A DNA stretch of 64,000 nucleotides, taken from NCBI RefSeq assembly GCF_023055435.1, contig NW_025963791.1:8370001-8434000 (forward strand). Direction: 5' to 3'. Below, piece by piece: positions 1,423-62,342 of this stretch (positions are counted from its first letter, which is position 1; each line of letters starts with the position of its first letter). Made by a program: the position numbers and the translations under genes. Under the pieces are notes generated by a model. That model did no database searches. It was not told the origin of the DNA and saw only the letters and a program-made list of their open reading frames with translations. This DNA comes from Haliotis rufescens (Eukaryota).

Positions 1423-2187
1423 TTAACATTTGTTTCTTCTGAACAGTTTTGTAAAACGGCGAAAGAAAGATTTTGACTTTTGTACATTTTGTTTCTGATT
1501 ACAAATTTCTATAAAATTGGTTGTGCTTGATGACATATGTTCCCTTGATGACAGACTACTTTGAGAGAGTTCATGATGTCTTGTTGACCTTTTGTCTTGT
1601 TCACGAGGTATGTCATTCTTTGATTGGACAATGTGGTCAAAGCACGTGGTCTGTGTAGCTCCTGACCTCTGAACAAGTCCAACACCCTCTCCCTCTCCTG
1701 AATGTACACACAGTCTTTCAACTCTCAACATGTCCACCTCTTTCACCAAGCGATCCACATGCTCCCTGAAGGAGACTTTCTCCTCCGAGAGTTGTCTGGC
1801 TTGTCTCTGAAGATGTTGGTTCTTCAGTTTCAGACATTGGGAACGGAGTCGTGCATCTCGTAGGTCAGCCCGGAGAATGTCCACATCAACCAGGACAGCC
1901 GTCAGCTGCATGTGGAGGTCGAGCTCTTTACCAAGTTGTTTGTCCTTTTTACTACAGTCCCATTGGAATGGTGGCTCGGGGCGAATAGGTCTTGGTTTTA
2001 TTGTGACGTGTCTGGGAACCAAATCGTGGAACTCTGAAATTGCAATAATCGAATTTAGTATATAATCAACTCTATGGTAAGTCTGAAACATTTACCCTGT
2101 TAAATAGATAAACTGGCAGAGAAATGACAGTTAATACATACTTTTTTAAACGAAGTTGCATGGATATGAGAGTTGAAATCACCCACG

Positions 2188-2220
<33 letters not shown>

Positions 2221-2649
2221 CAGATATAGACACACACACACACACCTATTGGTTCTGTAGGTGCAAAACACTCCGCCACCTCGGAATCAAACCCCTCACA
2301 CTCGGACACGGTCAGACCCCTTGGGACTGGTCTTGGTTTTATTGTGACGTGTTCGGGAACCGAATCATGAAACTCTGAAATAAAAATAACCGGATTTAGT
2401 ATTGAATCAATTAGACTGGCAAGTTTGAAAGTAATACCGCATATACATGTACGTATAAAATTAAGGAAGTTGTAAAAATACAGTGGCTGATTCTAAAACC
2501 CTTTTCAATTGAAACAGAAGTTAAAGAGTTGAACTCTGTTAAAATATATAACGGCACACACCTTTCGGTTCTGTACGTGAAAAACACTCCGCCACCTCGG
2601 AATCAAAGCCCTCACACTCGGACATGGTCAGACGTCTTGTGGCTGGCAT
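1423..2649 (-). CDS. Orphan coiled-coil protein, amplicon copy A (3 coding exons: 2649-2562, 2374-2246, 2033-1423; 275 aa)
   Basis: ATG at 2649 (MPATRRLTMSECEGF...). GT donors at 2561 and 2245, tttcAG acceptors before 2374 and 2033, both introns phase 1. Exon lengths 88+129+611=828 nt with an open frame. The same structure is conserved in 4 copies. The ORF-track start at 2091 lies in intron 2. Confidence 0.75.
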
Positions 2650-2728
2650 TATTCTTCGATAATCTCGATAAATGAAGAGCGTACTGCAGTGCTGCTGTAG
2701 CTTGCTGAGACAATGTCAGACAATGGCG

Positions 2729-2757
2729 TGACGTCACAATATCGCCTAATGACGTCA
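2729..2757. promoter_or_regulatory. Double CRE (TGACGTCA x2, 21-bp spacing) upstream of copy A
   Basis: TGACGTCA at 2729-2736 and 2750-2757, ~80-110 bp upstream of the ATG. Confidence 0.65.
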
Positions 2758-3695
2758 TAGCGACGTCTAGTCGGTAGATTTCGCTGTCGTCCGTTCGGTG
2801 GAAGTACCTTCAGAACAGGTCGATATATTTCTTTGTGAGTGTGTTCCGATTGCTACACATCAGCCGAGACATACCATCATTGGATGCTCTTTGTTCTTTG
2901 GTATAATGTCATCAAAACAAGCATCATATCATGGGCTAATATTAAAAAGATAATTAACAATCTAAATTCAAAAGCCGCAAAAGGTATTGTCTATATTTCC
3001 ATGTTTTTTTTCTCAAATGAATTTCGTTTTCGGAAGAGGTTTATTTTTATATTGTGAGCTATGTGATATTGTCATCAGTGGTTAGGCTTTTCACAACTGT
3101 CTATATATCTGTAAATCTATTCTTGCGCAGGAAAGCAACAGGGAAATAATTTGGTCAGCACCAAATTAAAATGTTTGAAATAAATGATTGGGTGTTGAAA
3201 AGAACATTCTGTGTAACAGGTAAAATGAGTGAGTGAGGTAGTTTTAACGGCACCCTGAGCACTATTTCTGTTAAATAACGGCGTGTCTATGAATGTTTAT
3301 TCCCAAAGTTTGGAAAGATGAGATCTCAGCATCGCTTCTAACTTCATACCTACATGCACGACACTGAGTGGCTGAAATACGGAAAGTTGTACATCCTCCC
3401 AACTGCCTTTTGATTCAATTATACAAGTGAGAAATACGTGGAACTGTTTTTTCTGTTCACCTTTTTAGACTGACTCGTAGTTCATGATTATAGTAGATGG
3501 CCCAGTTGTCATGGGTACGGTAAGACGCTGTGCAACCATGCTTCCTTAGCATATGTAGCATATGCAGCTACGATACTCTGGACGTTGGTTCTTGGTTTGT
3601 CAGCACCATACGATAGGCCGGAGGATTCTCACTTTGTTTATCAATAGTTTTCAATGTTTGCAATTACAAAAAAAAACTGGTTCTTGAACTCTTAA

Positions 3696-6600
3696 CCCTC
3701 TGGATGCCGCGATTTTTTTCTGACGCACATTTTCCAAAGATCGGAAAAGTGAAGGTTGTGCGAGAATTGCGCTCACGCGGCACTGGATCTACCTCTGGCT
3801 ATAAAATTACGCAGAGGTGGAGAATATTAAATTTCCTATTTGATGGTGTAAAGTTAACTGCAAATAATGAACCGTTTTAAAAAAAATACACTTATAAGTG
3901 TTGCCCGAGATTTTTTTCTGCCTTGAAAAACCGTAAATTTCTCCGCTTTTTATCGTACACCGATAAAAGTACTGTGCGACGATTTGTTTTGTTTACATGC
4001 TTTACGGAATCTGTGAGCGAACAAAATACTGCTTAATATCTGAACGACATAACTATATACCAAATGGAGTTATATGCGTATGTATAACGACCAACATGAA
4101 ATGCCAAAAATGACGAAAACTGATTTTTCTCTATGACGTCAAAAGGCGACAGAGAGGTTACACACGTACAAAGAAAAAGGGGCATAACTCCGCTCTGTTC
4201 AGCACTAGTTTATTGTAACTCAGGTCAATTGGTGAGAATTAGCTGTGGGTAAGGACAATATATTTTCGTGGTGTTTTGTTCACGAGGAACCAAACTATTC
4301 CAACAGAAATATCGATAAAGAAACTGTATACGTTTAGTTGTAAAAAAAATCCATAAGAAATGATGAAATCGTGCTTCATAAAAAAGAGGTAATAGAGAAA
4401 TGGAGGGCCCTATCTAACCTATAACTTAGTCCTTAGATTCAAACATTCTCCTGAATGTGTAAGTGTAATTTGACTAATGTTGCACCATTATTAATGGAGC
4501 ACTAGCCTTATCATCAAATGTAATGAAATATCCAAAAAAATAACACCGTTCTATTTGACGTCATGGCTGGTTTTATGTCTTTCATAACGTCGGAGAAAGA
4601 CGACACTGGTATTTTGATAACTATATATCTCCCCTAATTTTCGTTCATGATATGGAAAATCTCGATGTGTAAAACGGAATACGACGCTTTTTCGACACAA
4701 CATAAAATGACTGCTTTCACCAATTAAATAATGTCTTGAATATGTAAACAATTAGCTAGTTTATCGTGTGCCTTAATTGGACAAGACACGCACCTGATTG
4801 GCATCAATTTACGCAATGAAATACCAAAAAGAATATTTCAAAACAACCAAATTATATTCAATATCTCGTCTCAGAATTACATACTAAAAGATGCGGAGAA
4901 AGCTCTATTGGTATAAAATTGTCAGGATAATCGTATACGGTTGAACCAACAGCTAGCTAGGGTACTTAAATTGGCATGGGTTATATTTTTATACATTTTA
5001 CAATTCCTGGAGAAATAAAGTGAACAGTTTAATATCCTGTGATCACAACATTAAAAAAAGAATGAACCCATTGATTATATAATGCAAAACGAGAGGAATA
5101 ATTCGTAAATTGTTTGTGGCTAACACGCACCTGGCGAATCGTTAGATATCACGGCTCTGTGTATCAAACGACAAAAAAACAAAAAACAAAAACAATTCCA
5201 AGACCAAGACAATTCTTTCAGAAATGTGTGCATATCATTTTACGAAAAATATTATCCATTTTGTTAAAGTAATATAGATCTATTCAGTTTTAGTTATAAA
5301 ATAAAATGAAACAGCTATTCAAAGACATTGGTTATATGAACTTATGATATTGACTATTACACATCCCAAGAAATACGTACATGCTGCAGTTACCTTTACG
5401 CTTCATCTTGTAACACTTGTCCAAAGGAAAGAAATATAATCGTATTCGACACTAAAAACCTATCAATTGTTATGTAAATAATGTTCAAACAAACAGGAGA
5501 TTATCAAAGGTTCGTTCATTCATGTTGTGGCTTATATTTGTGTATGATATCATTTTGAACATTGACAAATATCCAAAGGGAAATTAATTCTGTGAAAAAA
5601 TGTATAAAACATATGTAAAATCTACATCATAACTGAAACTGTAAACAGCATGATACAATGATCGTGTGCACTCTCATTCAAGGACCTTCACCTCAAAGGA
5701 ATTACCAAATATGTACAACAATGTTGACGTATGACATCACTACCTGTGACCCACTTTTACAAAATGGCGTGTTCACTGTCAACAGTACGCGGGATTTTAC
5801 GCGGGACTTTCGTTGATTCAGGGATCGTATATACATAAATGTGACATGTAAGTAATCAGAAACATTCTGACAATCTATGTACTGTTATTTTTTGTTATAA
5901 TTTTCATTGAAAAAAACCGAAATAGGCAGAAATTCCGATAAATACCGTTGTCGTTGTGCGTGATTTGCGTCAGTCATGGCGTCACACAGGACGGTAACTT
6001 TGACAATTTCTGTTGAAAATATCAAATCATTGCAGTGTATCTATTTTAAATTCCCTAATGTTTCCTACTACTCTCTTCCCGTGCATATTCTGAAAATGTT
6101 GAGCCATTATCTTGAAAGAATAGACGAATGGATAGCTCAAAAAAGTAGAAAATGCTACACTGTGTAAAGTCTGTTTTTTGCTTTGTTTACATTTCAAACA
6201 AGTGCAGCTTTTCGAGCACAGCATTCGTTTTCACACCTAACATATTTTGCTTGATAGCCAATATGGCGGAAAGTTTACTTTGGCGTTCGTGTTTGCGTAT
6301 TTTCCAAAACATTCGAAACGATTCTCGGGTTATCGGAGACGTTTTGGAATGATCATTGGTGATTTCATAAAAGACAGATACCCGTGATCACTAATATGCT
6401 ATTTTGGAAATTCATTTCTCCGAGTAAATATCCTAAATTTAGATTTCAAAACATGCTGTAAATAACGCCGTGAGAGGTGATTTAGTAATGTGTAAAAAAT
6501 GGCGACATTTACGATGTACCTAATTTTCAGAGGTCATTTTCAGTAATTTTGCTTGGCCTAAAATGCCAGTGGATGATATCACAGAACAGGTAATTTCCCA
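3696..6600. mobile_element. Truncated non-autonomous piggyBac-like DNA transposon (right end not found; end coordinate approximate)
   Basis: Starts TTAA|CCCTCTGG at 3692-3703, exactly where homology with the other units breaks. The equivalent TTAA is uninterrupted in copy D (18845-18848). No transposase ORF. Confidence 0.5.
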
Positions 6601-8819
6601 CCTTATTCAAAACTGTGAAGTGTATTTGTGTGGGTGATGTATTTTAAATTTTATTCGACTTCAAAGTGAGGGTTGTAGAGGAAGGACATATATGTCCCAC
6701 TCTCCTACCCAGAGTTCCATGCGGCCGGTAGCCAGCTAGCATAGTACCTCTGCCACAGGCCAGCGCCATGTGACGATTCGTCACATCTTTCACAGCCCAT
6801 TCAAGATATTGCATATGCTTTTCATCCGTTTCATGTTTGACAAGTCTACACATTTTCATAAACAAATGTCAAATAATGGTTAACTTTCATTGAGAAAGTA
6901 TGCAAATACTTAAAAATCTACTTGTTTTTGCGTAGTTATCCTATGTTTGCATTGGTTGTACGGCTCCACGTGCTGTCATCGAAGCCCAACGGAGAGCTAG
7001 CGACACGGTCACTTTGATGCATAAATATATATTGTCATACAACTCACTGTCGCAGTTGTAGTAGCATATCTATATAGTTATGCAAAACAATATGTAAAGC
7101 GCCCCCAAATACTTGCATTAGTCGGTTCTATACTGATTTCTGAAAAAGCGCGTTTGTTTACAAACAAGAGAAAAGTCCGGTCACGTGATATGCAAATTAG
7201 CCTGATATACACACAACGACAAAACGAAACAAGGTAACAATTTGAACACATTTCGGCCAAATCCAACTGTTTAATTTGTGGAAGAGGGTCCAAGTCGGAG
7301 AGGCCTCCAAGCACTGATATGGAAAGTAATCCCGCTTGGCTACTGCCCGCAATTTATATCTCCAAAGTTGCCAAACCTTGTAAAATGCCTTATCTACGGC
7401 ACAGTTAGATGCTGATTTTCAGTATATTCAGACTATTATTTTAATAATGATAGATATTATCCCAGTAGTTTCTCCAGATTCCCGATGGTTAATTTTGACA
7501 AGATCGCCGAATGACAAGGGCGACGCCATGTTTGTTTATTTACAGTGAAAGTAGTCCCTACTTGACCTCTGATATTTGCATCTCTATCCGCGTATAACCC
7601 CAACTGATATCCTTTTAATCCGTTGGCTTTATCCTGCCGAGAAAGCCACCCATTACATGATAAAAACCGATATCTTTATAATGATGATTGAGTATAATAA
7701 GATAGTAAGCACATTTGAAGTATTTTTTACATTGGAACATTCATTGTCTAGCGTTCCTGGAAATACGATTATTCATCATAAATAAATATGATAATGTGCA
7801 TATATATCCTTCTGTTGGAATATGTTGACCATAATCTACTTTTCGTATTCATTTAATTACCACACAGTTTGCAATAATTGCAATAACAATACAAACTAGG
7901 TCTTTCGCTCTTAACGTGACCCTTAGGGGTACGGGTGGGCGATTGTCAAAGGCGCTGCAATATTCCCTATCCACTCGTGTTATAATCCGATAATCGTGGG
8001 CTCGAATCACAGGTTCATAGTCGTGCTCGTGGGTTTCACCAAAGTGACAAATCACCTGCATCACTTTGGGCGTAACTGAAATGCTGTTTAAAACGCCCTT
8101 GAAACCAACTCTACAATATTACGTGTGTGTCGGTCACAATGTGTCAGACTATTGAATACTTTTATTGAACTTGTATAGTGCATGCGATTTTTGTCTGTGA
8201 ATGTCATAGGAGTAAACTTGAATGACACACGTGTTCATTAACCTAAACAATGTGGGTATCAATTCTTCCCATGAGAATTATGTTTATTCCATAACATTGT
8301 TAGATCCTCCTGTACAGATGTCCAGGGCCCCGTTTCACAAAGCGATCTTAGCACTAGGACTACCGTAACTCCCTTACTTTAACATAGACTTACGATAATC
8401 GTAGCATTAATATCGCTTTGTGGAACGAGGCCCAGGCCATATTTTCTAGTTTTCCCTAGTTTCCTTGTCCTATTCTCCCTATTATGTCCGATGTAATTCC
8501 CTACTTTGGCATGTATCATATGATTCTGTGGTCTTTCAGGCGAATACTTGACTTGCCTTTCCATTTGTTTTTTGGGACGAGTGCCACCGGTTGGGTAGGA
8601 TAGGCTCACCTTTTCGCCAACACCTGTTGTCACCTCTATTTGATAGTACATGTAATTCACAAACACGTTAAAGATATAGTCTGAATCGTACAATGGCCTC
8701 GGCTTTCAGCAGACATTTCTTATGATCATGGAAATGATTTTGTATCTTTATTTACGATAGATATTGTTGATGTTTAGTGAAACAATCAGTTCAACTGTTA
8801 CCAAGGCGAGTACTTAAGG

Positions 8820-9080
8820 GACCCGTGAAGATCCGGGTTAGAAAAGGTCTTCAGCATCCCATGCTTGCCTTAAAAAGCGACTATGTTTGTCGTAAGAGGC
8901 GACAAACGGGATCAGGCGATCAAGCTCACTGACTTGGATGATGCATGGCATCGAATCCCATTTGCGTAGATCGATGCTCATGATCAATCACTGGATTGAC
9001 TGGTCCAGACTCGATTATTTACAGACCGCCGTCATATAGCTGGAATATTGCCGAGTGCGGCGTAAAACAACAAACATAAT
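8820..9080 (+). mobile_element. SINE family A (no tRNA head, ~260 bp); paralogous insertion at 13502-13765
   Basis: 12-bp TSD AGTACTTAAGGG (8809-8820, 9081-9092); 3' tail GCTGGAATATTGCYGAGTGCGGCGTWAAAC followed by (AAAC)n. Confidence 0.85.
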
Positions 9081-9740
9081 AGTACTTAAGGGTATGTACC
9101 TCACCGATCACACAGTTCTTTGATTATCTAATCATGTTGAATAAAAAAATGATAAAAGAATATGTTGTATTCTTGCAATGAATTGATTAGGTTTAACTGA
9201 GCTGGTTAAAGCGTTAGCTCTTGATGCTAAAACCCAGAGTTCGATCCCTAATATAGACAATACGTTAAGACCTATTTTCGATGGCCCCGATATTGCTTGA
9301 ACACTGCTAAAATGAAGCAATGTCACACTCAACCCATGCATGGATGGATGAACGGTATGGCTTATTCGCGAAGTGTGATGATACTGATGCCTTAAATATT
9401 AATGTTGATGGATATCTTGTGTCTATGTTTCCCCGTGGGGATTCCGGGTTAGACAAGGTCCCAGCAACGAGCGCTGGTTGAAAGAGGCGACAAACTGATC
9501 GGGTGGTCAGACTCAGTCACATGGTTGATTGTGTGTCATCGTATCATAAGGCTTACAATATCAATCACTGACTTTACAGGCCGTCGTCATATAGCTGGAC
9601 TTTTGCTTAGTGCAGCGTTAAACAACAAACAAACATAAATTGCAGCTATTGAACACAGACAGTTGTAAACAAATAACAAAGACATTGCTTTTAAACTATA
9701 ACAGTTGTTATTTGATCAACAAAATGAACATTAAATAACA

Positions 9741-10549
9741 TTAACATTTGTTTCTTCTAAACAGTTTGGTAAAACGACGAAAGAAAGATTTTGACTTTTG
9801 TACATTTTGTTTCTGATTACAAGTTTCTATTGAATTGGTTGTGCTTGGTGACATATGTTCCCTTGATGACAGACTACTTTGAGAGAGCTCAGGATGTCTT
9901 GTTGACCTTTTGTCCTGTTCACGAGGTATGTCATTCTTTGATTGGACAATGTGGTCAAAACACGTGGTCTGTGTAGCTCCTGATCTCTGAACAAGTCCAA
10001 CACCCTCTCCCTCTCCTGAATGTACACACAGTCTTTCAACACTCAACATGTCCACCTCCTTCACCAAGCGATCCACTTGCTCCCTGAGGGAGACTTTCTC
10101 CTCCGAGAGTTGTCTGGCTTGTCTCCGAAGATGTTGGTTCTTCAGTTTCAGACATTGGGAACGGAGTCGTGCATCTCGTAGGTCAGCCCGGAGAATGTCC
10201 ACCTCAACCAGAACAGCCGTCAGCTGCACGTGGAGGTCGAGCTCTTTGCCAAGTTGTTTGTCCTTTTTACTACAGTCCCATTGGAATGGCGGCTCGGGAC
10301 GAATAGGTCTTGGTTTTATTGTGACGTGTTTGGGAGCCAAATCGTGGAACTCTGAAAACGCAATAATCGAATTCAGTATAATCAACTCTATGGTAAGTCT
10401 AAAACATCAGCACATATACATTTACCCTGTTAAATAGATAAACTGGCAGAGAAATTACAGTTAATACAGACTTTTTCAACGAAGTTGCAGGGATATGATA
10501 GTTGAAAGCACCCACGGCATACACACAGACAGACAGACATAGACAAACA

Positions 10550-10597
<48 letters not shown>

Positions 10598-10998
10598 TCG
10601 GTTCTGTACGTGCAAAACACTCCGCCACCTCGGAATCAAACCCCTCACACTCGGACACGGTCGGACGCTTTGCGACTGGTCTTGGTTTTATTGTGACGTG
10701 TTTGGGAACCGAATCACGAAACTCTGAAATAAAAATAACCAGATTTAGTATTGAATCAATCAAACTGCCAAGTGTGAAAGTAATACCGCGTATATATCTA
10801 CGTATAAAATTAAGGAAGTGGCAGAAATACAGTGGTTGAATCTGAAACACTTTTCAATTGAAACAGAAGTTGTAGAGTTGACCTCTGTTATTATATATAA
10901 CGGCACACACCTGTCGGTTCTGTACGTGAAAAACACTCCGCCACCTCGGAATCAAAGCCCTCACAGTCGGACACGGTCAGACGTCTTGTGGCTGGCAT
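9741..10998 (-). CDS. Orphan coiled-coil protein, amplicon copy B (exons 10998-10911, 10723-10595, 10351-9741)
   Basis: Same exon lengths (88/129/611) and splice sites as copy A, open frame. Confidence 0.75.
10551..10594. repeat. (CA)n microsatellite beginning at the intron-2 donor of the orphan gene (also ~2189-2245, ~15249-15293, ~19993-20009)
   Basis: Direct reading; length differs among copies. Confidence 0.95.
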
Positions 10999-11077
10999 AA
11001 TTCTTCGATAATCTCGATAAATGAAGAGCGTACTGCAATGCTGCTGTAGATAGCTGAAGGTATGTCAGACAATGGCG

Positions 11078-11106
11078 TGACGTCACAATATCAGCTAATG
11101 ACGTCA
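11078..11106. promoter_or_regulatory. Double CRE upstream of copy B
   Basis: TGACGTCA at 11078-11085 and 11099-11106. Confidence 0.65.
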
Positions 11107-14100
11107 TTGCGACGTCTAGTCGGTAGATTTCGCTGTCGTTCGGAAGAGGTCGGTAGATTTCGTTGTGAGTGTGTTCCGATTGCTACACATCAGCCGAAAA
11201 ATACCATCATGAGAAGCTCTTTGTACTTTGGTATAATATCGTTACTTTCTTCAAAACAAGCATCATATCATGGGCTAATATTAAGAAGATAACTAAAAAT
11301 CTTAATTCAGAAACAGTAAAAGGTATTGTCTATTTGTCCATGTTTTTTCTCAAATGAATTTCGTTTTCGGAAAGGGTTTATTTTTATATTGTGAGCTATG
11401 TGATAATGTCATCAGTGTTGGAAAGCAACAGGGATATAATTTGGTCAGCACCAAATTGAAATGTTTCAAATATATGATTGGCCGTTGAAAAGAACATTCT
11501 ATGTTACAGGTAAAATGAGTGAGTTAGATAGTTTTAACGCCACCTTCAACAATATTTCAGTTAAATAACAGCATGTCTATGAATGTTTATTCCCAAAGTT
11601 TGGAAATTTTCCTTTTTTGACGACACTGTCTCGTAGTTCATGATTATAGGAAATGGACCAGTTGTCTAGGGCGCGGCAAGACGCTGTATAGACATGCGTC
11701 CTTCTTAGGCGTACAGACTACTCTGGTCGTTAGTTCTTGGTTTGTCAGCACCATACAATAGACTGGAGGATTCCACTTTGCTTATGTAAAATGTAAATAA
11801 TGTCCCAAATTACCACAAAGAAATTGCAACAAAAATTGAAACATTGTTCCTAAATAATATACTAGAGGGGGGTTATATGCTTTCGGAACACACAGGGGCG
11901 AGGACAAATTATATATCACAGGATATTTGTTTTTAATTCATATTTTGCATCTACACGAGAAGAAGTTTCCTCTCAATTGATGTAACTTTGTTCTGATGGT
12001 TATAGTTGTAATTTCAACATTTTGAATTATATATTAGTAAATTAGGAAACGGTCTAGGGGAGAAACACCCGTTAGCCTTTGCCGATGAGAGTGACTTCCC
12101 TTGTGTTGAATAAAAGATGGCGTAGAACAACGAAGCTCGTCTTGAGGTATACTTCTATTTGGGTAATTGGAATAGTTCCAAATTCGTCGAAGCTTTTTGA
12201 AAAAAAGAGCCGACATTCACTTCATTCATAGATTCATTCTACGACAAAGCTTAACTGTTGGCAGTGAAACAGCTGTTTGTCTATATATTTACATCCTTAG
12301 ACGGACATCCGATAACCGATAACTTGATAATGATGACTGAAAATTATAAGATACTAAGAACATTTGATGTATTTGGTACATTGGAAAATTTATTATCTAG
12401 TGCTACTGGAAATACGTTTATCCATCATAAATGATGTGCATATATATCCTTCTGTTGGAATATGTTGACCATTATCTACTTTTCGAATGAATTTAATTAG
12501 CACACAGTTTGTAATGTTTCCAATGAACAATACAACCTGGATCTTGAGCTCTTAAAGAGACGCTTGTGGGGTACGGGTGGCCGATTGTGTAAGGCGTTGC
12601 AATTCGCTATCCACTCGTGTTGGAATCCGATTATCGTGGGTTCGAATCACAGGTTCATAGTCGTACTCGTGGGTTTCACCAAAGTGACAAATTTCTAAGA
12701 CCTGCATCACTTTGGGCGTTTCTCCCACAAAATACTGACAGGCGGTGACATAACTGAAATGCTGTTCGAAGCGGCGTTGAGCCCAACTCTACAGTATGAT
12801 GTGTCTGTCGGTCACAATGTCTCAGATTGTTGAATACATATTATTGAACTTTTATAGTGAATGAGATTTTTGTCTGCGAATGTCAGAGGAATAAACTTGA
12901 ATGACACACGAGTACATTGACCTAAACAATGTGGATATCAATTCACCCAATGAGAATTATGTTTTTCCACAATATTGTCAGATCCTCCTGTACATAAGCC
13001 CAGGGCCTCGTTTCACAAAGCGATCTTAGCACTAGGACTACCGTAACTCCCTTACTTTAACATGGACTTACGATATTCGTAGCATTAATATCGCTTTGTG
13101 GGACGAGGCCCAGGCCACATTTTCTAAACGATGCCTTTCCCTAGTTTCCTTGTCCTATTCTCCCTATTATGTCCGATGTAATTCCCTACTTTGGCATGTA
13201 CCATATGTTCCTGTGGTCTTTCAGGCGAATACTTGACTTGCCTTTCCATTTGTTTGTGACAAGTGCCACCGGTGGGGTAGGATAGGCTCACCTTTTCGCG
13301 AACACCTGGTGTCACCTCTATTTGATAGTACATGTAATTCACAATCAGGTTAAAGATAGAGTCGGAATCGTACAATAGACTCGGCTTTCAGCAGACATTT
13401 CTTATGATTATGGAAATGATTTTGTATCTTTATTTACGATAGATATTGTTGATGTTTAGCGAAACAATCAGTTCAACTGTTACCAAGGCGACTACTTAAG
13501 GGACCCGTGAAGATCCGGGTTAGAAAAGGTCTTCAGCATCCCATGCTTGCCTTAAAAAGCGACTATGTTTGTCGTAAGAGGCGACAAACGGGATCAGGCG
13601 ATCAAGCTCACTGACTTGGTTGATGCATGGCATCGAATCCCATTTGCGTGGATCGATGCTCATGATCAATCACTGGACTGACTGGTCCAGACTCGATTAT
13701 TTACAGACCGCCGTCATATAGCTGGAATATTGCCGAGTGCGGCGTAAAACAACAAACAAACATAATAGTACTTAAGGGTATGTACCTCACCGATCACACA
13801 GTTCTTTGATTATCTAATCATGTTGAATAAAAAATTGATAAAAGAATATGTTGTATTCTGGCAATGAATTGATTAGGTTTAACTGAGCTGGTTAAAGCGT
13901 TAGCTCTTAATGCTAAAACCAAGAGTTCGATCCCTAATAACTACAATACGCGAAGTCTATTATCGATGGCCCCGATATTGCTTGAACATTGCTAAAATGA
14001 AGCAATGTCACACTCAACCCATGCATGGATGGATGAACGGTATGGCTTATTCGTGAAGTGTGATGATACTGATGCCTTACATATTAATGTTGATAGATAT

Positions 14101-14425
14101 CTTGTGTCTATGTTTCCCCGTGGGGATTCCGGGTTAGAAAATGTCCCAGCAACCTGTGCTGGTCGTAAGAGGCGACAAACTGATCAGGTGGTCAGACTCA
14201 GTCACATGGTTGATTGTGTGTCATCGTATCATAAGGCTTACAATTTCAATCACTGACTTTACAGGCCGTCGTCATATAGCTGGACTTTTGCTTAGTGCAG
14301 CGTTAAACAACAAACAAACATAAATTGCAGCTATTGAACACAGACAGTTGTAAACAAATAACAAAGACATTGCTTTTAAACTATAACAGTTGTTATTTGA
14401 TCAGCAAAATGAACATTAAATAACA

Positions 14426-15246
14426 TTAACATTTGTTTCTTCTAAACAGTTTGGTAAAACGACGAAAGAAAGATTTTGACTTTTGTACATTTTGTTTCTG
14501 ATTAGAAGTTTCTATTGAATTGGTTGTGCTTGGTGACATATGTTCCCTTGGTGACAGACTACTTTGAGAGAGCTCAGGATGTCTTGTTGACCTTTTGTCC
14601 TGTTCACGAGGTATGTCATTCTTTGATTGGACAATGTGGTCAAAACACGTGGTCTGTGTAGCTCCTGATCTCTGAACAAGTCCAACACCCTCTCCCTCTC
14701 CTGAATGTACACACAGTCTTTCAACACTCAACATGTCCACCTCCTTCACCAAGCGATCCACTTGCTCCCTGAGGGAGACTTTCTCCTCCGAGAGTTGTCT
14801 GGCTTGTCTCCGAAGATGTTGGTTCTTCAGTTTCAGACATTGGGAACGGAGTCGTGCATCTCGTAGGTCAGCCCGGAGAATGTCCACCTCAACCAGAACA
14901 GCCGTCAGCTGCACGTGGAGGTCGAGCTCTTTGCCAAGTTGTTTGTTCTTTTTACTACAGTCCCATTGGAATGGTGGCTCGGGACGAATAGGTCTTGGTT
15001 TTATTGTGACGTGTTTGAGAACCAAATCGTGGAACTCTGAAAACGCAATAATCGAATTCAGTATAATCAACTCTATGGTAAGTCTAAAACATCAGCACAT
15101 ATACATTTACCGTGTTAAATAGATAAACTGGCAGAGAAATTACAGTTAATACAGACTTTTTCAACGAAGTTGCAGGGATATGATCGTTGAAAGCACCCAC
15201 GGCATACACACAGACAGACAGACATAGACAAATAGACAGACAGACA

Positions 15247-15296
<50 letters not shown>

Positions 15297-15697
15297 TCGG
15301 TTCTGTACGTGCAAAACACTCCGCCACCTCGGAATCAAACCCCTCACACTCGGACACGGTCAGACGCTTTGCGACTGGTCTTGGTTTTATTGTGACGTGT
15401 TTGGGAACCGAATCACGAAACTCTGAAATAAAAATAACCAGATTTAGTATTGAATCAATCAAACTGCCAGGTGTGAAAGTAATACCGGGTATATATCTAC
15501 GTATAAAATTAAGGAAGTGGCAGAAATACAGTGGTTGAATCTGAAACACTTTTCAATTGAAACAGAAGTTGTAGAGTTGAACTCTGTTATTATATATAAC
15601 GGCACACACCTGTCGGTTCTGTACCTGAAAAACACTCCGCCACCTCGGAATCAAAGCCCTCACACTCGGACACAGTCAGACGTCTTGTGGCTGGCAT
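14426..15697 (-). CDS. Orphan coiled-coil protein, amplicon copy C (exons 15697-15610, 15422-15294, 15036-14426)
   Basis: Same exon lengths and splice sites, open frame; closest to copy B. Confidence 0.75.
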
Positions 15698-15776
15698 AAT
15701 GCTTCGATAATCTCGATAAAATAAGAGCGTACTGCAGTTCTGCTGTAGATAGCTGAAGGTATGTCAGACAATGGCG

Positions 15777-15805
15777 TGACGTCACAATATCAGCTAATGA
15801 CGTCA
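15777..15805. promoter_or_regulatory. Double CRE upstream of copy C
   Basis: TGACGTCA at 15777-15784 and 15798-15805. Confidence 0.65.
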
Positions 15806-18800
15806 TTGTGACGTCTAGTCGGTAGATTTCGCTGTCGTCCGTTCGGCGGAAGTACCTTCGGAAGAGGTCGGTAGATTTCGTTGTGAGTGTGTTCCGATTG
15901 CTACACATCAGCCGAAACATACCATCATGAAATGCTCTTTGTACTTTGGTAAAAAATCGTTACTTTCTTCAAAACAAGCATCATATCATGGGCTAATATT
16001 AAGAAGATAATTAACAATCTTAATTCAGAAACAGTAAAAGGTATTGTCTATATTTCCATGTTTTTTCTCAAATGATTTTCGTTTTCGGAAAGGGTTTATT
16101 TTTATATTGTGAGCTATGTGATAATGTCATCAGTGTTGGAAAGCAACAGGGATATAATTTGGTCAGCACCAAATTGAAATGTTTCAAATATATGATTGGC
16201 CGTTGAAAAGAACATTCTGTGTTACAGGTAAAATGAGTGAGGGAGATAGTTTTAGCGCCACCTTCAACAATATTTCAGTTAAATAACAGCATGTCTATGA
16301 ATGTTTACTCCCAAAGTTTGGAAATTTTCCTTTTTTGACGACACTGTCTCGTAGTTCATGATTATAGGAAATGGACCAGTTGTCAAGGGCGCGGCAAGAC
16401 GCTGTATAGACATGCGTCCTTCTTAGGCGTACAGACTACTCTGGTCGTTAGTTCTTGGTTTGTCAGCACCATACAATAGACTGGAGGATTCCACTTTGCT
16501 TATGTAAAATGTAAATAATGTCCCAAATTACCACAAAGAAATTGCAACAGAAATTGAAACATTGTTCCTAAATAATATACTAGACGGGGGTTATATGCTT
16601 TCAGAACACACAGGGGCGAGGACAAATTATATATCACAGGATATTTGTTTTTAATTCATATTTTGCATCTACACGAGAAGAGGTTTACTTTCAATTGATG
16701 TAACTTTGTTCTGATGGTTATAGTTGTAATTTCAACATTTTGAATTATATATTAGTAAATTAGGAAACGGTCTAGGGGAGAAACACCCGTTAGCCTTTGC
16801 AGACGAGAGTGACTTCCTTTGGGTTGAAATAAAAGATGGCGTTGAACAACGAAGCTCGTCTTGAGGTATACTTCTATTTCGGTAATTGGATTAGCTCCAA
16901 ATTCGTCGAAGCTTTTTGAAAAAAAGAGCCGACATTCACTTCATTCATAGATTCATTCTACGACAAAGCTTAACTGTTGGCAGTGAAACAGCTGTTTGTC
17001 TATATATTTACATCCTTAGACGGACATCCGATAACCGATAACTTGATAATGATGACTGAAAATTATAAGATACTAAGAACATTTGATGTAGTTGGTACAT
17101 TGGAAAAATTATTATCTAGTGCTACTGGAAATACGTTTATCCATCATAAATGATGTGCATATATATCCTTCTGTTGGAATATGTTGACCATTATCTACTT
17201 TTCGAATGAATTTAATTAGCACACAGTTTGTAATGTTTCCAATGAACAATACAACCTGGATCTTGAGCTGTTAAAGAGACGCTTGTGGGGTACGGGTGGC
17301 CGATTGTGTAAGGCGTTGCAATTCGCTATCCACTCGTGTTGGAATCCGATTATCGTGGGTTCGAATCACAGGTTCATAGTCGTGCTCGTGGGTTTCACCA
17401 AAGTGACAAATTTCTAAGACCTGCATCACTTTGGGCGTTTCTCCCACAAAATACTGGCAGGCGGTGACATAACTGAAATGCTGTTCGAAGCGGCGTTGAG
17501 CCCAACTCTACAATATTAAGTGTCTGTCGGTCACGATGTCTCAGATTGTTAAACACATTTAAGTACATTGACCTAAACAATGTGAATATCAATTCACCCA
17601 ATGAGAATTATGTTTTTCCACAATATTGTCAGATCCTCCTATACATAAGCCCAGGGCCCCGTTTCACAAAGCGATCTTTGCACTAGGACTACCGTAACTC
17701 CCTTACTTTAACATGGACTTACGATATTCGTAGCATTAATATCGCTTTGTGGGACGAGGCCCAGGCCACATTTTCTAAACGATGCCTTTCCCTAGTTTCC
17801 TTGTCCTATTCTCCCTATTATGTCCGATGTAATTCCCTACTTTGGCATGTACCATATGTTCCTGTGGTCTTTCAGGCGAAAACTTGACTTGCCTTTCCAT
17901 GTGTGCGTGACGAGTGCCACCGGTGGGGTAGGATAGGCTCACCTTTTCGCGAACACCTGGTGTCACCTCTATTTGATAGTACATGTAATTCACAAACACG
18001 TTAAAGATATAGTCTGAATCGTACAATGGACTCGTCTTTCAGCAGACATTTCTTATGATTATGGAAACAATTTTGTATCTTTATTTACGATAGATATTGT
18101 TGATGTTTAGTGAAGCAATCAGTTCAACTGTTACCAAGGCGAGTACTTCACTTGTTCAAATGAACAAATATAGTACACGTAAAAATAGGGAATAGCACAA
18201 GACAATAGGGAAAATTTAGACAATATTGGTCTGGGCCTGGTTCCCCAAAGCGATTTTTGTACTGAAATTAAAGTTACGCAGTCTTGTGTTAGGATTGCCA
18301 TGAGGAAGGCGCCCCTGGACGTCTGTAAAGGAAGATCCAACATTATTGTGGAAAAACAAAATTCTCTTCGGATTCTTCATTGTGTTTCTTTCTTGTTTAA
18401 CATTGCACTCAGCAATATTCCAGCTTTATGACGACGGTCTGTAAATAATCGAGGCTCGAACAGACAGTCCAATGATTGACAGCATGAGCATCGAGTTACG
18501 CATTTGCACACGATTACATGCATCAACCAAGTCAGCAAGCCGGACCACCCGATCAGTTAGTCGCCGTGGATCGATGAAATATTGCTGAGTTCGGCGTTAA
18601 ACAACAAACAAGCAAAGCATATTCTGACCGACAGACATATAATATTGTAGAATTGGGCGGAATGCCTTTGGAAAACCATTTCTGTAGGACATTAATATTT
18701 TGTCACTTTGGTTAAACCCGCGAGCACGAATATGAACTTGATATTGGACCCACAATCATCGAATTATGACACGCCGAGAGGACAGCGACTTTAAGCGCCC

Positions 18801-19480
18801 CAAACGACTCGGACGACCGGCCACCCGTACCCCCAAGGCTCTCTTTAAGAATTAGTTTGTTTTGTTAATTGCAAACATTGAAAACTATTAATAAACAAAG
18901 TGAGAATCCTCTGGCCTATTGTAAGGTGCTGACAAACCAAGAACCAACGTCCAGAGTATCCTAACTGCATATGCTACGTCAAAGAAGGAAGCATGTCTGC
19001 CCAGCGTCTTACTGTGTCCTAGACAACTGGGCCATCTGCTATAATCATGAACTACGAGTCGGTGTGGTCTTAAAAGGTGAAGACCAAATTATTTCCCTGT
19101 TGCTTTCCTGCGCAAGAATAGATTTACAGATATATAGACAGTTGTGAAAAGCCTAACCACTGATGACAATATCACATAGCTCACAATATAAAAATAAACC
19201 TCTTCCGAAAACGAAATTCATTTGAGAAAAAAAACATGGAAATATAGACAATACCTTTTGCGGCTTTTGAATTTAGATTGTTAATTATCTTTTTAATATT
19301 AGCCCATGATATGATGCTTGTTTTGAAGACATTATACCAAAGAACAAAGAGCATCCAATGATGGTATGTCTTGGCTGATGTTCAGCAATCGGAACACACT
19401 CACAACGAAATATATCGACCTGTTCTGAAGGTACTTCCACCGAACGGACGACAGCGAAATCCACCGACTAGACGTCGCTA

Positions 19481-19509
19481 TGACGTCATTAGGCGATATT
19501 GTGACGTCA
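19481..19509. promoter_or_regulatory. Double CRE upstream of copy D
   Basis: TGACGTCA at 19481-19488 and 19502-19509. Confidence 0.65.
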
Positions 19510-19588
19510 CGCCATTGTCTGACATAGTCTCAGCAAGCTACAGCAGCACTGCAGTACGCTCTTCATTTATCGAGATTATCGAAGAATA

Positions 19589-20822
19589 ATGCCAGCCACA
19601 AGACGTCTGACCATGTCCGAGTGTGAGGGCTTTGATTCCGAGGTGGCGGAGTGTTTTTCACGTACAGAACCGACAGGTGTGTGCCGTTATATATAATAAC
19701 AGAGTTCAACTCTACAACTTCTGTTTCAATTGAAAAGTGTTTCAGAATCAACCACTGTATTTCTGCCACTTCCTTAATTTTATACGTAGATATATACGCG
19801 GTATAACTTTCACACTTGGCAGTTTGATTGATTCAATACTAAATCTGGTTATTTTTATTTCAGAGTTTCGTGATTCGGTTCCCAAACAGGTCACAATAAA
19901 ACCAAGACCAGTCGCAAAGCGTCTGACCGTGTCCGAGTGTGAGGGGTTTGATTCCGAGGTGGCGGAGTGTTTTGCACGTACAGAACCGATAGGTGTGTGT
20001 GTGTGTGTGTCTATTTGTCTATGTCTGTCTGCCTGTGTGTATGCCGTGGGTGCTTTCAACTATCATATCCCTGCAACTTCGTTTAAAAAGTCTGTATTAA
20101 CTGTAATTTCTCTGCCAGTTTATCTATTTAACACGATAAATGTATATGTGCTGATGTTTTAGACTTACCATAGAGTTGATTATATACTAAATTCGATTAT
20201 TGCAATTTCAGAGTTCCACGATTTGGTTCCCAAACACGTCACAATAAAACCAAGACCTATTCGTCCCGAGCCACCATTCCAATGGGACTGTAGTAAAAAG
20301 GACAAACAACTTGGCAAAGAGCTCGACCTCCACATGCAGCTGACGGCTGCCCTGGTTGAGGTGGACATTCTCCGGGCTGACCTACGAGATGCACGACTCC
20401 GTTCCCAATGTCTGAAACTGAAGAACCAACATCTTCGGAGACAAGCCAGAAAACTCTCGGAGGAGAAAGTCTCCCTCAGGGAGCAAGTGGATCGCTTGGT
20501 GAAGGAGGTGGACATGTTGAGTGTTGAAAGACTGCGTGTACATTCAGGAGAGGGAGAGGGTATTGGACTTGTTCAGAGATCAGGAGCTACACAGACCACG
20601 TGCTTTGACCACATTGTCCAATCAAAGAATGACATACCTCGTGAACAAGACAAAGGGTCAACAAGACATCATGAACTCTCTCAAAGTAGTCTGTCATCAA
20701 GGGAACATATGTCCCCAAGCACAACCAATTCAATAGAAACTTGTAATCAGAAACAAAATGTACAAAAGTCAAAATCTTTCTTTCGTCGATTTACCAAACT
20801 GTTTAGAAGAAACAAATGTTAA
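19589..20822 (+). CDS. Orphan coiled-coil protein, inverted amplicon copy D (exons 19589-19676, 19864-19992, 20212-20822)
   Basis: ATG 19589; donors ACAG|gtgtgt and ATAG|gtgtgt; acceptors tttcag|; open frame ending ...KSFFRRFTKLFRRNKC*. Confidence 0.75.
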
Positions 20823-22453
20823 TGTTATTTAATGTTCATTTTGTTGATCAAATAACAACTGTTATAGTTTAAAAGCAATGTCTTTGTTATTTGTTTATAA
20901 CTGTCTGTGTTCAATAGCTGCAATTTATGTTTGTTTGTTGTTTAACGCTGCACTAAGCAAAAGTCCAGCTATATGACGACGGCCTGTAAAGTCAGTGATT
21001 GAAATTGTAAGCCTTATGATACGATGACATACATTCAACCATGTGTCCGAGTCTGACCACCTGATCAGTTTGTCGCCTCTTACGACCAGCACAGGTTGCT
21101 GGGACCTTGTCTAACCCGGAACCCCACGGGGAAACACAGACACAAGATATCTATCAACATTAATATGTAAGACATCAGTATCATCACACTTCACGAATAA
21201 GCCATACCGTTCATCCATCCATGCATGGGTTGAGTGTGACATTGCTTCATTTTAGCAGTGTTCAAGCAATATCGGGGCCATCGATAATAGACTTCGCGTA
21301 TTGTAGTTATTAGGGATCGAACTCTGGGTTTTAGCATTAAGAGCTAACGCTTTAACCAGCTCAGTTAAACCTAATCAATTCATTGCCAGAATACAACATA
21401 TTCTTTTATCATTTTTTATTCAACATGATTAGATAATCAAAGAACTGTGTGATCGGTGAGGTACATACCCTTAAGTACTATTATGTTTGTTTGTTGTTTT
21501 ACGCCGCACTCGGCAATATTCCAGCTATATGACGGCGGTCTGTAAATAATCGAGTCTGGACCAGTCAATCCAGTGATTGATCATGAGCATCGAGCTGCCG
21601 TGGCAACCATGTTGAAAACCAAATTTGAACCTCTTGAACAAATTGGGATGTCATCATTGGTGGGAATCAGTAAGTTTCAGCTTCATTGGTCCAGTGGCTT
21701 GCTGAAGAGCTGATGTTTAGGACAGATAACAGACAATCAGGCCACAACATAAGCTCACTGTACTTTTAATAATAAATAAAGTCTTGGACATTGACACATT
21801 GGTAGATCATAAATACATGAAACTTCAGGTGGATGAATATAGTGTCAAGAAGTAGTCTTGAAACATTGTTAGAAACAAGGAAGAAGTTATTATCCATGAA
21901 AGTCTTCATGCCAAAAGCAGTACTGAACATTTGTCACTCCTAAAAAATACTGACACGTGGAAAAAAGAACAGGACGAAAAAGATGGAAAACAGGTCCATT
22001 GGTTGTAATTTCCAATGTGCCAGTCACCTGTTCAACAATTTTGTGTTGCAACAGTGAACAGAATTCTGTAATCACAGTTGTATTTATTTCACAATGTCAA
22101 TAGTAACAGGACACCTCCTGAAAACAGTGAAAATGGGTTTGCTCTTTCAAAAACAATGGGCCAATGTTCATGTGCAGGTCAACATACAAACACCCTGCAC
22201 ATTATCAATCAGAAACTTCAGATTTTACAAGATCACCTAACAGCCCCAACTTTAGTGTGTTTGCTTGTGATGCCAAAGACCTGGGTTTGAATCACAACAT
22301 GGTTACAATGTGTAAAACCCATTTCCGGGTGCACCAGCCCCACCCCACCTCCCACCATGTTATTGCTGGAATATTGCTAGAAGCGGGGTAAAACCATACC
22401 CACTCGGGGACAGAAACAAGTCCCCATCTCAACACATGACAAAGCCTTCAGTT

Positions 22454-25400
22454 TCAGCTAAATCTGTTCATCTTTTTATTTTTCAACTCCCTGTAGAGCT
22501 GCACAGCCTTCTCCCTCTCGAAGTCCATGATGTGTTGCTGTGCCATGGACAGGGTTTTCCTCTTGACCGTCTGCCCCAGCTCACGCCGCCCCCCCTTACC
22601 ACCCGAGGGCGTCTGCTGACTGTGGCTGGAGTTGCTTGTGATGATGTCTTTCAACAACAGGGACTTCTTACCTGGCTGAAATGGGAAATGCCAGCAATGT
22701 TATAATAATTATCAGACACCTTTGAAGCCCTGTCTGATTACAAATCACCTTATTCCAAGTGAATGATTAAAACTGGGAACACCACATTCTGTGCTTATCC
22801 TGGAGGTCCTTGTTCAGTGTGCACTGCTGACACTGACAGCTCTGTGACATATGCCCATTGCTTACCCTCAGAACTGTGTCCTGTGCCCATTGCTTACCCT
22901 CAGAACTGTGTCCTGTGCCCATTGCTTACCCTCAGAACTGTGACCTATGCCCATTGCTTACCCTCAGAACTGTGTCCTGTGCCCATTGCTTACCCTAAGA
23001 ACTGTGACCTATGCCCATTGCTTACCCTCAGAACTGTGTCCGGTGCCCATTGCTTACCCTTAGGGCTCTGTGTTCCGTGTGCATTGCTTTCCTTAGTATC
23101 TGCTTACTTTGTACCCATTTCTTAACCTGAGACCTCTGTTCTGTGTGCATTGCTTACCATAATATGTGCTTCTTTATATGCATTGCTTACCCTTAGGGCT
23201 CTGTGTTCCGTGTGCATTGCTTTTCCTTAGTATCTGCTTACTTTGTACCCATTGCTTACCATGGGAGCTCTGTTCTGTGTGCATTGCTTACCTTAGCATG
23301 TGCTACTTTATATCCATTGCTTACCACAGTATCCTATTGTGCTGTGATCCTTGCTTACCCTTAGGGCTCTGTGTTTTGTGCGCATTGCTTACCTTAGTAT
23401 CTGCTTACTTCACATCCATTGCTTAACCTGGCACCTCTGTGTTCTGTGTGCATTGCTTTCCTAAGTATCTGCTTACTTAATATCCATTGTTTACCATGGT
23501 ATCCTCTTGTACTGTGTGCATTGCTTACCCTGGGAGAGTATTGTCTGGGTCCATTTCCTACCCTGGTATCCTCTTATTGCATGTGCACTGCTTACCATTG
23601 GAGCTTCCTGTGTGCACTGCTTGCTTCAACAGTTCTTCTTTCTGTGTGCTTTACTTACCCGAGGAACTCCTTGTTCTGTGTGTGCTTTGCGTGGGAGGAC
23701 AGACAGAGTTGGGGGAGCATGGACTATTTCCCCGAATTGTACCTCATCTGAAGCAGGAGGTAAGGAGGAACATCAACATTATATTCATAAAGAATCTTTT
23801 CAGTCATATCATGGATCTTCCAACTACATTATTATTTTACAAACCTGATTAGGTATTCTTAATGAGAGCACAATACATTAACACCGAAAACAACATCACA
23901 TTTTGGGGAGTTTTGAGAAAGAAATATACAATTTTGGAAAGGGATGTGAGAAAAAGTCCTATGTCATTAAAATATACTCAAGATACAATCACTGGCAATG
24001 ACTAACATCCATGTTGACTATACACCAGCAGTGAAAATACATGTCAACATTTGCATTCTGTTCTGCTCTATGAGTGAGTTGGGTTTAATGCCGCTTTGAT
24101 GAGTATTTCAGATTTATCTTGGCTTGTCAGCCTAATGTTGGAGGAAAATGAATGGATGCAGGGATTACATGTTTTCCGCCTGGATGAAATCCATAAGCAT
24201 GCATATGGACCTGACAAACCTAGAAACATAATCAGGGCAAATCTGGAATTTGGACCAACGATCATAAGATCCTGGCATACCTAACAGATGTAACTCTGCA
24301 CAGCTAATTGTGGCACATAAAACAACTGGCCCACCTGTGCCACTGAGAGAGACAAGAGTGTGAAACATGATGTCATGGATAAAAGTATGTCAAAGCTCCA
24401 AGCCTGTCAAAGGTTCAAGAATGTCAATGGTTCAAGGATGTCAAGGGTCCAAGGCTGTCAAAGGTTCAAGAATGTCAATGGTTCAAGGATGTCAAGGGTC
24501 CAAGGATGTCAAAGGTTCAAGAATGTCAATGGTTCAAGGATGTCAAGGGTCCAAGGATGTCAAAGGTTCAAGGCTGTCAAAGGTTCAAGAATGTCTTGGA
24601 TAAAAGGATGTCAATGGTCCAAGGTTGTCAAAGGTTCAAGGTTTCAAGTATGCCAAAGGAGCAGGGATGTTAAAGGTTCAGTGACACAAAGGTTCAAGGA
24701 TGTCAAGGGTTCAAGATTGTCATTCCTGTGAACCCCACATTCTTGTCATGGTTTATACATGGATGTACTAATTCAAACCTTTGAACTGGCTGAAGTCTCG
24801 TTCTTTTTCTCTATCTTTTTCTTTCTTCTTCTCTTTATGTTTCTGCTTATGCTCTTTTGATCGCCTGCAAAGCGAAGGCACTCCGTAAAAAGCAAACAGA
24901 TTGACAGAGCAAACAGTTCATATCATATGGTCATATATTTTGGTTTAATTTCAATTTCTAATACGTAACATTACAGGTCAAAGATGATGTGTGCACTGTT
25001 TCTTTGGTAACTGTCAAATAATTTTTACAGACATCTTTAGGTATGACATGGCCATGGATCGCCCTCTGGGCAGAGGCTCTAGATACTACACCATGGATCT
25101 GTCCTCAGGGATGTGAATACGAAGCAGTGAGACAGATTCTTCCATATTCTGACAGCTACTGATTATACCCCATACTCACATTTTCACTTTTTCTGCTCTT
25201 TTTGTTGTCGTAGGATTTATGTCTCCGCTTCTGTGAAACTACAATATATAATATTTTTATAGAATTTCATTGGCTACATGTATACAGCATAATTCTGTTA
25301 CCCAATGTCAACTCTTTTTGACTTATTTACAGTCTGGGACACAGACAATCCAGTGCTTATCACTCATGACCAACAATATCCAACAAAAGAAGTTAAAAGA

Positions 25401-61081: not shown

Positions 61082-62342
61082 CTTGTCTCAGTCTCTATTT
61101 TTTTAAAACAACAAACACTCCTGTGAAGTACTTTTTAAGCTAAAACTTCATAACTTTATGGTAGAATCTGAAACCAAGAAGATACTCTGTATTAGTGAAT
61201 GGGATTAATGAATATACAGCTTGATACAATAAGACTTCGTCATAACCCTAAGATGCTTATGTTACAATAAAATCAATATAACAAAGCGGATTCCAGGTTG
61301 CTACTATAACACTATTAATAAAAACACATTATGGACACCCTGTAATTTCAAATACTGTCAATGGCTAATAAGCACACTTGTACTTAGATTTTGGGTAAAA
61401 ATTATTATCCACGTACAGTGGACACAATAATACCAAATCAGTTTGCATAAAATAATCAAATCCGGATGAAGAAAGTCTGAAAACCAGTTATTCATAGCTT
61501 CATAGAGTGGTAGTCCATACTGTCAGGGTAAAATTGATCCACAATCACAGATCAGTAGAGTCAAACATTGTAACTAGCAGCACATAAGTCTAACATTCTT
61601 AAATAAATTTAATGACATATGCTGGGGCACCAGAGATGTATTTTGGCCCATAAATACAACAGAGGGTATTTCAAGATTTGAGTCAAAATCTCAAACAGAG
61701 ATAAACATAGAATTATCACAGAATATGAAGAGTTTCCAGGTAAGGTACTTTTTTCTATAGTTACTTAGTAGATGAATTTTGGACATCGCCTAAGGCTATC
61801 AACACAGGGCCATATTCCTACACAACCTGTGTTCAAAAGATTCAGGGGCCTGAGTCAAGCACCTAGCCAGACATTAAATTTAAAGATTAATGAAACTGCC
61901 ATGGTGACCTAAAAATAGCTAAGCTAGGACTTAGCACTTTCTTGTTATTGTAACAAGCTATCCTGAGCATGATATTAAGGCTTGGCCTATTTCACAAGTA
62001 GAAAGTCCTGTTCAAGGATGGTTAGGCCTATTTCTAGGTTATGACAGTATCGAAGTTTCAGTCTTACATACTATCTCTTTTAAGCATTCATTTTTAAATT
62101 AAATTAAATAAAATGACATGAAACGATAAATTCCATAATGAAAGTCATGCCGCCCTACAAATAGAGGCGGAAGTAACCTATAGAGTGAAATGCAGATGTT
62201 TCAGATAACTTCCGACGTCTTGTTTTTCTGCCTGACATGAACAAACAACGGTTCACTGAAGTTTGAGTCGCTATCTTTCCCTGAAAACCAAAACTCTATA
62301 ATGTAATAACTTTAAAACTATTATGTGATAACTGAATCTTAC

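Follow-up and report, generated by a model that had tools for sequence, protein, structure and literature searches.

An abalone-restricted, amplified family of coiled-coil genes with a conserved tandem cAMP response element promoter and probable male-gonad expression

The 64,000-nucleotide stretch of the Haliotis rufescens genome analyzed here (G000:C13:8370001-8434000, referred to as the window) carries near its left end four similar three-exon genes encoding proteins of 275 residues, raising the question of whether they are genuine genes, where they are expressed and what such a protein might do. The original prediction, made from the letters alone, had described them as an amplified orphan gene family with one copy in a palindrome arm. 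Our analysis shows that they belong to a previously undescribed protein family, yet one of a known sort, namely the lineage-restricted amplified genes.

Intact genes of an abalone-restricted family

In all four copies the exons measure 88, 129 and 611 nt, both introns are bounded by GT..AG and the 275-residue frame is open, in full agreement with the gene model initially proposed:

1423..2649, minus strand: copy 1, 275 residues; exons 2562-2649, 2246-2374 and 1423-2033
9741..10998, minus strand: copy 2; exons 10911-10998, 10595-10723 and 9741-10351; protein that of LOC124151733 (XP_046380290.2)
14426..15697, minus strand: copy 3; exons 15610-15697, 15294-15422 and 14426-15036; protein that of LOC125378058 (XP_048248822.1)
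19589-20822, plus strand: copy 4, three exons; protein that of LOC124151732 X1
19589..19676, plus strand: exon 1 of copy 4, 88 nt, encoding the first half of the amino-terminal motif
19864..19992, plus strand: exon 2 of copy 4, 129 nt, a phase 1-1 cassette contributing one 43-residue module and skippable (232-residue isoform)
20212..20822, plus strand: exon 3 of copy 4, 611 nt, encoding the end of the amino-terminal motif, a predicted 85-residue helix (residues 99-183), a disordered linker and a cationic amphipathic tail

The proteins of copies 2, 3 and 4 are letter-identical to 'uncharacterized' Haliotis rufescens models in RefSeq, and the exon-2-skipped isoform of copy 4 equals LOC124151732 X2. 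The genes are therefore not hidden, as RefSeq models already exist; their records hold no function, tissue or family description, and we found no mention of 18 family LOC identifiers in the searched literature. A further RefSeq model, LOC124151736 (375 residues; G000:C13:8367291-8372034), is an apparent fusion of part of copy 1 with a fifth copy and probably a mis-model. This fifth copy is intact and located at G000:C13:8367291-8368531, 1.5-2.7 kb left of the window, so that the array does extend past the left window edge as had been suspected; the 36 kb further left contained no additional copy. Among these five copies, none of the 20 gap blocks lies in coding sequence (P = 1.5e-4 if gaps were uniformly placed), confirming that indels are confined to the non-coding parts.

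At genome level the family comprises 19 genes, a count that is a lower bound: 13 on this scaffold, all with open frames and arranged in three clusters, two on contig C608, two on contig C112 and two distant paralogues, likewise on C112. Homologue searches returned matches from four Haliotis species and from no other genus (15/15 and 6/6 matches, and 24/24 for the amino-terminal motif alone), and a hidden Markov model search against 1.84 billion representatives yielded six matches, five from Haliotis and the sixth a sea-urchin coil of marginal significance (E = 9.7e-4). Judged by these searches, convincing homologues so far occur in Haliotis alone and the family is abalone-restricted, so that it is both lineage-specific and amplified, as anticipated. 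In a tree built from 45 regions of the last exon, each of the two distant paralogues is matched across species by single orthologues; the subfamily with two modules is multicopy in all four species, mostly in species-specific groups, nine inner branches being weak; H. cracherodii has its own paralogues within the same subclade.

These data bear directly on the proposal that the copies are ORF1/gag-like passengers of a transposon or an artefact of the assembly. Some ORF1 proteins typically combine a coiled coil with a basic end, and the region is rich in repeats, but the family genes have two or three conserved introns, are clustered instead of dispersed, possess one-to-one orthologues across species and match no transposon family at the Pfam cut-off. 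The mosaic differences between copies and the separate paralogues of H. cracherodii likewise argue against an artefact. We thus assign this proposal next to no probability, and a retrotransposon ORF1/gag origin is, as it stands, refuted by the introns, the clustering and the orthologues.

The arrangement of copy 4 departs from what had been proposed:

19158..21593, plus strand: inverted duplicate carrying copy 4, 94.4% identical to 13653-16135, with a spacer of ~3 kb

The duplicate, with arms of about 2.4-2.5 kb, shares 94.4% identity with the copy-3 unit and 92.7% with the copy-1 unit. Its promoter and exon 1 are of the copy-1 type (28 of 34 informative sites), the downstream part resembles copies 2 and 3, and adjacent informative sites are concordant in 47 of 53 cases, above chance (permutation p = 1e-4). 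Owing to these identities, the mixed affinities and the site concordance, copy 4 is a recombinant inverted duplicate and no near-identical palindrome arm; the long, near-identical arms of Y-type palindromes are replaced here by 94.4% identity over about 2.5 kb. The family shares with the ampliconic palindrome genes of mammalian sex chromosomes the multicopy state, an inverted duplicate, exchange between copies and a probable male-germline expression. However, identity between members of those families is reported to reach up to 99% (PMC5081929), in contrast to mosaic abalone arms of 2.4 kb at 94%, and the likeness to mammalian palindromes that had been drawn is accordingly not sustained. No abalone mapping study bearing on sex linkage was among the matches listed.

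We further analyzed selection with our own codon-model scripts on fixed trees, giving omega values (ratios of replacement to synonymous rates) that are weakened by recombination. The pairwise comparison advocated in the original prediction indicates constraint for most window pairs (0.47-0.61), copies 2 and 3 alone reaching 1.19 (2 synonymous, 8 replacement differences). For the 13 scaffold copies, model M0 yielded an omega of 0.62 (p = 8e-4 versus 1), hence replacements fall below the neutral expectation and the presumed excess of amino-acid change disappears. Adaptive fast evolution is not borne out either: the comparison of M2a with M1a gave p = 0.066 for the 13 copies and p = 0.21 for the last exon of nine paralogues (five of the 13 scaffold copies and four deeper paralogues), both at low power and with recombination present. 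Within this last exon, omega was 0.59 overall, 0.35 for the amino-terminal motif, 0.70 for the coil, 0.76 for the linker and 0.17 for the tail; constraint is concentrated at the two ends, tail and amino-terminal motif. The best reading of the copy history is birth-and-death, with unequal crossing-over and conversion turning copies over while moderate purifying selection acts on them.

Transcripts and the tandem-CRE promoter

The runs containing family sequence (X1, X5, X9 and others, here called holders) were analyzed as contigs; they are RNA by guess, none of those listed being recorded as such. Contigs from 4/4 runs examined cover the three exons, with most of intron 2 at zero depth. Joints between exons 1 and 2 are present in X5 and X9, and a GT..AG skip from exon 1 to exon 3 is present in X1 and X9 (joint 19673 to 20209), agreeing with the 232-residue RefSeq isoform. 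Looking for spliced reads, as had been recommended, thus shows that the family is spliced and that its cassette exon is skipped, at the level of the family. A deep exon-1 contig starts at 19551, about 40 nt downstream of a promoter element pair of copy 4 described below, contig ends being no proof of a transcription start. A 126-nt contig from X1 shows two differences from copy 4, compared with three for copies 2 and 3 and 6-11 for the remaining ten copies on the scaffold. The subgroup of copies 2, 3 and 4 thus appears to be transcribed.

In the three holders that we examined for it, from three studies, exons 2-3 of sperm lysin were found at summed contig depths of 1e5 to 6.7e5. Lysin is listed among the top male-gonad transcripts (PMC11989308). 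Because family RNA co-occurs with this transcript, the family is likely expressed in the male gonad, i.e. a testis gene, and the germline expression initially suggested can be graded as probable. Run X24, holding almost none of the gene's words, gave no lysin contig; this zero may be false and is not counted as evidence. Five short peptides were not found in one small supplement of PMC9022041.

Upstream of the genes, each window copy carries a pair of cAMP response elements (CREs), 108 and 87 nt ahead of the ATG:

2729..2757, minus strand: tandem CRE pair in the promoter of copy 1, TGACGTCA twice, 21 bp apart
11078..11106, minus strand: tandem CRE pair in the promoter of copy 2
15777..15805, minus strand: tandem CRE pair in the promoter of copy 3
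19481..19509, plus strand: tandem CRE pair in the promoter of copy 4

A perfect CRE occupies a fixed place in all 17 closer genes, and 13 of these 17 have two CREs, 20-21 bp apart. Apart from SINE-like repeats (resembling short interspersed elements), this cassette is the principal non-coding part that can be aligned in the C608 and C112 paralogues; it persists in LOC124112753, the protein of which is 34% identical, and is kept in 18 of 19 family genes overall, well in line with the CRE promoter that had been predicted. In the older C608 and C112 paralogues an intron apparently separates the CRE pair from the ATG; the 13 copies on the window's scaffold have none, and their 87-nt spacing is fixed. 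An IRF-like site, GAAANNGAAA, occurs in that form solely in the five array copies and was set aside.

The holders and promoters also allow us to weigh the possibility that the gene is CRE-driven but broadly expressed or stress-inducible, the lysin link stemming from libraries of pooled tissue or whole animals. Immediate-early genes, too, are preceded by CRE pairs, and the lysin check is confined to 3 of 14 holders. Against it, all three holders examined were extremely lysin-rich, the 1.2 kb upstream of each of the 17 genes contained no heat-shock element, and the LOC prefixes of the family that we searched for do not occur in the supplement to a heat-stress synthesis of nine studies, which employs these gene identifiers and covers core genes only. 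We consider a somatic or stress-induced gene unlikely.

From the promoter sequences, a basic leucine zipper (bZIP) factor of the CREB/CREM type would be the candidate driver of the family. In mammals, CREM drives spermatid genes. None of the papers listed by our literature search treats a CREM-type spermatid programme in molluscan testis; PMC11333461 only cites work on CREM in spermatid genes. In the lysin and sp18-like genes an intron precedes the ATG, which has no CRE next to it, and at three tektin loci the 1.5 kb ahead of the domain contained no perfect CRE. As both checks fall short of the true transcription start, they neither demonstrate a general CRE regulon of the testis nor rule one out.

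An extended form of the motif gave 84 genome-wide matches versus 3 for a reversed control, which leaves the general abundance of CREs in this genome uncorrected. Most of the 60 non-family loci examined among these matches head no recognizable gene, and nine of them precede members of a second multicopy family with two exons; in eight of these the two CREs are 16 bp apart. This second family (L101-L105, L121, L136, L139 and L153, at G000:C13 25.8-34.6 Mb and on C146, C112 and C583) gave 16 strong matches; the proteins begin MGCKQTK and contain a Lys/Glu-rich carboxy-terminal stretch, and the CRE pair lies shortly ahead of the ATG. Its single exons have no Pfam match; the proteins may resemble STMND1/CCDC198. 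Loci L166 and L167 (G000:C2:46636759-46637153) are two near-identical tandem CREB-type bZIP terminal exons, reminiscent of vertebrate CREM with its pair of alternative exons for DNA binding. At L150, L122, L152 and L123 the extended CRE motif is followed by long single-exon frames, comprising two divergent kinases and two unnamed paralogues; the frames looked up, a set without the L122 kinase frame, had no exact-sequence match in the collection. By eye, a short repeat is shared just upstream of the tandem-CRE promoters at C13:7477603, C112:4888976, C112:3947579, L103 and L104, and thus by promoters of both amplified families.

Protein architecture and possible function

The features ascribed to the protein, i.e. 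a duplicated 43-residue module, a coil, a Ser/Gln-rich linker and an invariant tail, are all present. AlphaFold predicts one helix of 85 residues (99-183) with a predicted local distance difference test score (pLDDT) above 90 and the remainder at low confidence; with 25 sequences as input, the tail became helical too. The heptad register spans residues 109-180 (ten heptads), with Leu at the d positions L140, L147, L154, L161, L168 and L175 and with Asn (Asn144), Ala, Lys, Val and Val at a; L140, N144 and L161 are invariant across the 25 sequences. Leu at d combined with Asn at a is typical of parallel dimers, and residues 109-180 are predicted to form a parallel two-stranded coil. In 20 of 21 proteins no 11-mer is more amphipathic than the tail (moment 0.65-0.88, charge +2 to +5), and this holds also for diverged tail sequences. 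Judged by these properties, the cationic amphipathic tails are predicted to bind anionic membrane. The MinD membrane-targeting sequence and the Rit/Rin tails are C-terminal amphipathic membrane-targeting helices; the abalone tail shares with them a short cationic carboxy-terminal helix with a Phe/Leu face, an analogy without homology. Inspection of the sequence revealed neither a signal peptide nor a membrane-spanning stretch. In a comparison of ten diverse members, seven positions of the amino-terminal motif are invariant; a protein carries the motif one to three times.

Database searches agree with the initial impression that no known family is recognizable, yielding only generic coils. In Pfam, the family proteins gave coiled-coil matches below the cut-off only and the amino-terminal motif no family (a single row, E = 0.2); its PDB row, myosin light chain MYL2, was rejected at E = 0.85. 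Foldseek returned 0 matches, VIA-align generic coils with a best Z of 7.5 that barely cover the motif, and the Atlas a bacterial, unnamed top match of 0.90, the motif being without usable match.

The zipper-like coil raises the alternative that the protein is a membrane-anchored bZIP decoy, its zipper without basic region pairing with Fos-, Jun- or CREB-type factors, keeping them from CREs and thereby feeding back on its own promoter. The Leu-d repeat over six heptads, with Asn and Lys among the a residues, resembles Fos, Jun and dominant-negative zippers; the c-Fos zipper is the best PDB sequence match (E = 0.49), bZIP_1 scores weakly (E = 0.044 and 0.14), and the promoter itself would be CRE-driven. 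However, the Fos and bZIP_1 scores are non-significant and of a kind common to many coiled-coil families, HHalign against an abalone Jun-like bZIP gave a probability of 0.4%, and the coil extends over ten heptads, with the constraint on the protein lying outside the zipper (omega 0.70). We regard such a decoy as very improbable. A bZIP transcription factor proper was rejected: the basic region of bZIP proteins has Asn 18 residues and Arg/Lys 10 residues ahead of the first Leu of the zipper, and these positions read E122/L130 or D129/S137 here, with bZIP_1 below cut-off. Slightly more doubtful still than the decoy is its extension, in which a CREB/CREM-like tandem-CRE programme of abalone sperm precursors would drive several independently amplified orphan families, and a membrane-anchored zipper without basic region would trap bZIP factors as a feedback brake, with copy number tuning the dose.

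A long coil, a membrane-type tail, the multicopy state and likely testis expression would also suit a structural sperm filament or scaffold that self-assembles via the coil and is needed at high dosage, with no partner docking. A single uninterrupted helix of 85 residues is short for a filament rod, the fold matches are generic (best Z 7.5) and the amino-terminal motif is under tighter constraint than the coil; such a scaffold is hence improbable in our judgment.

As our preferred reading, to which we give even chances, the protein is a CRE-driven spermatogenic coiled-coil dimer that tethers a partner to a membrane during sperm formation. Its starting point is the intact genes, the splicing and cassette skipping at family level, the 19 paralogues and the conserved CRE pair. 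Expression in the male gonad would follow from the co-occurrence with lysin, and a CREB/CREM-type bZIP factor could act as the driver. Two chains may then pair via residues 109-180 as a parallel two-stranded coil, with Leu at d and the invariant Asn144 at a, placing two cationic amphipathic tails on an anionic membrane. The 43-residue module, in one to three copies, might serve as a linear docking motif, its number being set by exon duplication and splicing.

Several observations weigh against this tethering dimer. No joint between exons 2 and 3 was among the joints listed, and the two exon-1 contigs of X1 carry alleles of the other clusters and thus speak for no single window copy. The lysin check covered 3 of the 14 RNA-guess holders, and the holder libraries carry no tissue labels and are possibly of pooled tissue, so that co-occurrence stops short of germ-cell specificity. 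LOC124147912 has no clear CRE cassette within 30 kb (best E = 0.021), and CREs are common in this genome, with 26 others in 264 kb. Finally, the omega values of coil (0.70) and linker (0.76) do not differ significantly from 1.

The closest parallel that we found is the mouse Speer/alpha-takusan family, which is likewise lineage-restricted, amplified, clustered and testis-expressed (the abalone expression being probable), an analogy for which no homology was shown. Speer genes are Dlg5-derived, number over 100 and are reported to be under positive selection (PMC2680341, PMC5081929). In contrast, the abalone family numbers about 19 genes, shows no significant positive selection and ends in an amphipathic tail. 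A Takusan cluster is a sub-threshold Atlas neighbor (score 0.89), and the Takusan domain PF04822 gave no match at E<=1 in 14 family proteins. This parallel makes it worthwhile to consider amplification driven by genetic conflict, in which the protein would be a segregation distorter or suppressor of male germ cells with selection acting on copy number. Mouse alpha-takusan has been speculated to be such a factor (PMC5081929). Likely male-gonad expression, the two-module subfamily being multicopy in four species next to single-copy older paralogues, and a second multicopy family with a similar tandem-CRE promoter would fit. Significant positive selection and any chromatin- or nucleic-acid-binding domain are lacking, and the copy number of 13 is modest, leaving conflict with a low probability.

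For the tethering dimer and its promoter, the wider interest lies in abalone being a standard model of reproductive-protein evolution, centered on the secreted proteins lysin and sp18. The family would represent a likely male-gonad sort unlike these two, intracellular and amplified in four species, that changes through copy and exon number and not through detectable positive selection. A CRE cassette that outlasts protein similarity, together with the similar CRE pair on a second amplified family, opens the way to testing for a CREM-like programme of spermatogenesis in a mollusc.

Neighboring features of the window

43788-61087, minus strand: epsin-like gene with an ENTH domain at 60545-61084 (E = 1e-53) and DPW-rich exons
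22463-22678, minus strand: exon-like frame of a neighboring gene, without Pfam match
3700..6701, no strand assigned: dispersed repeat element of ~3 kb with many near-full copies elsewhere at 86-96% identity

Much of the extra distance separating copies 1 and 2 is due to this repeat, one copy of which lies ~10 kb upstream of the lysin ATG.

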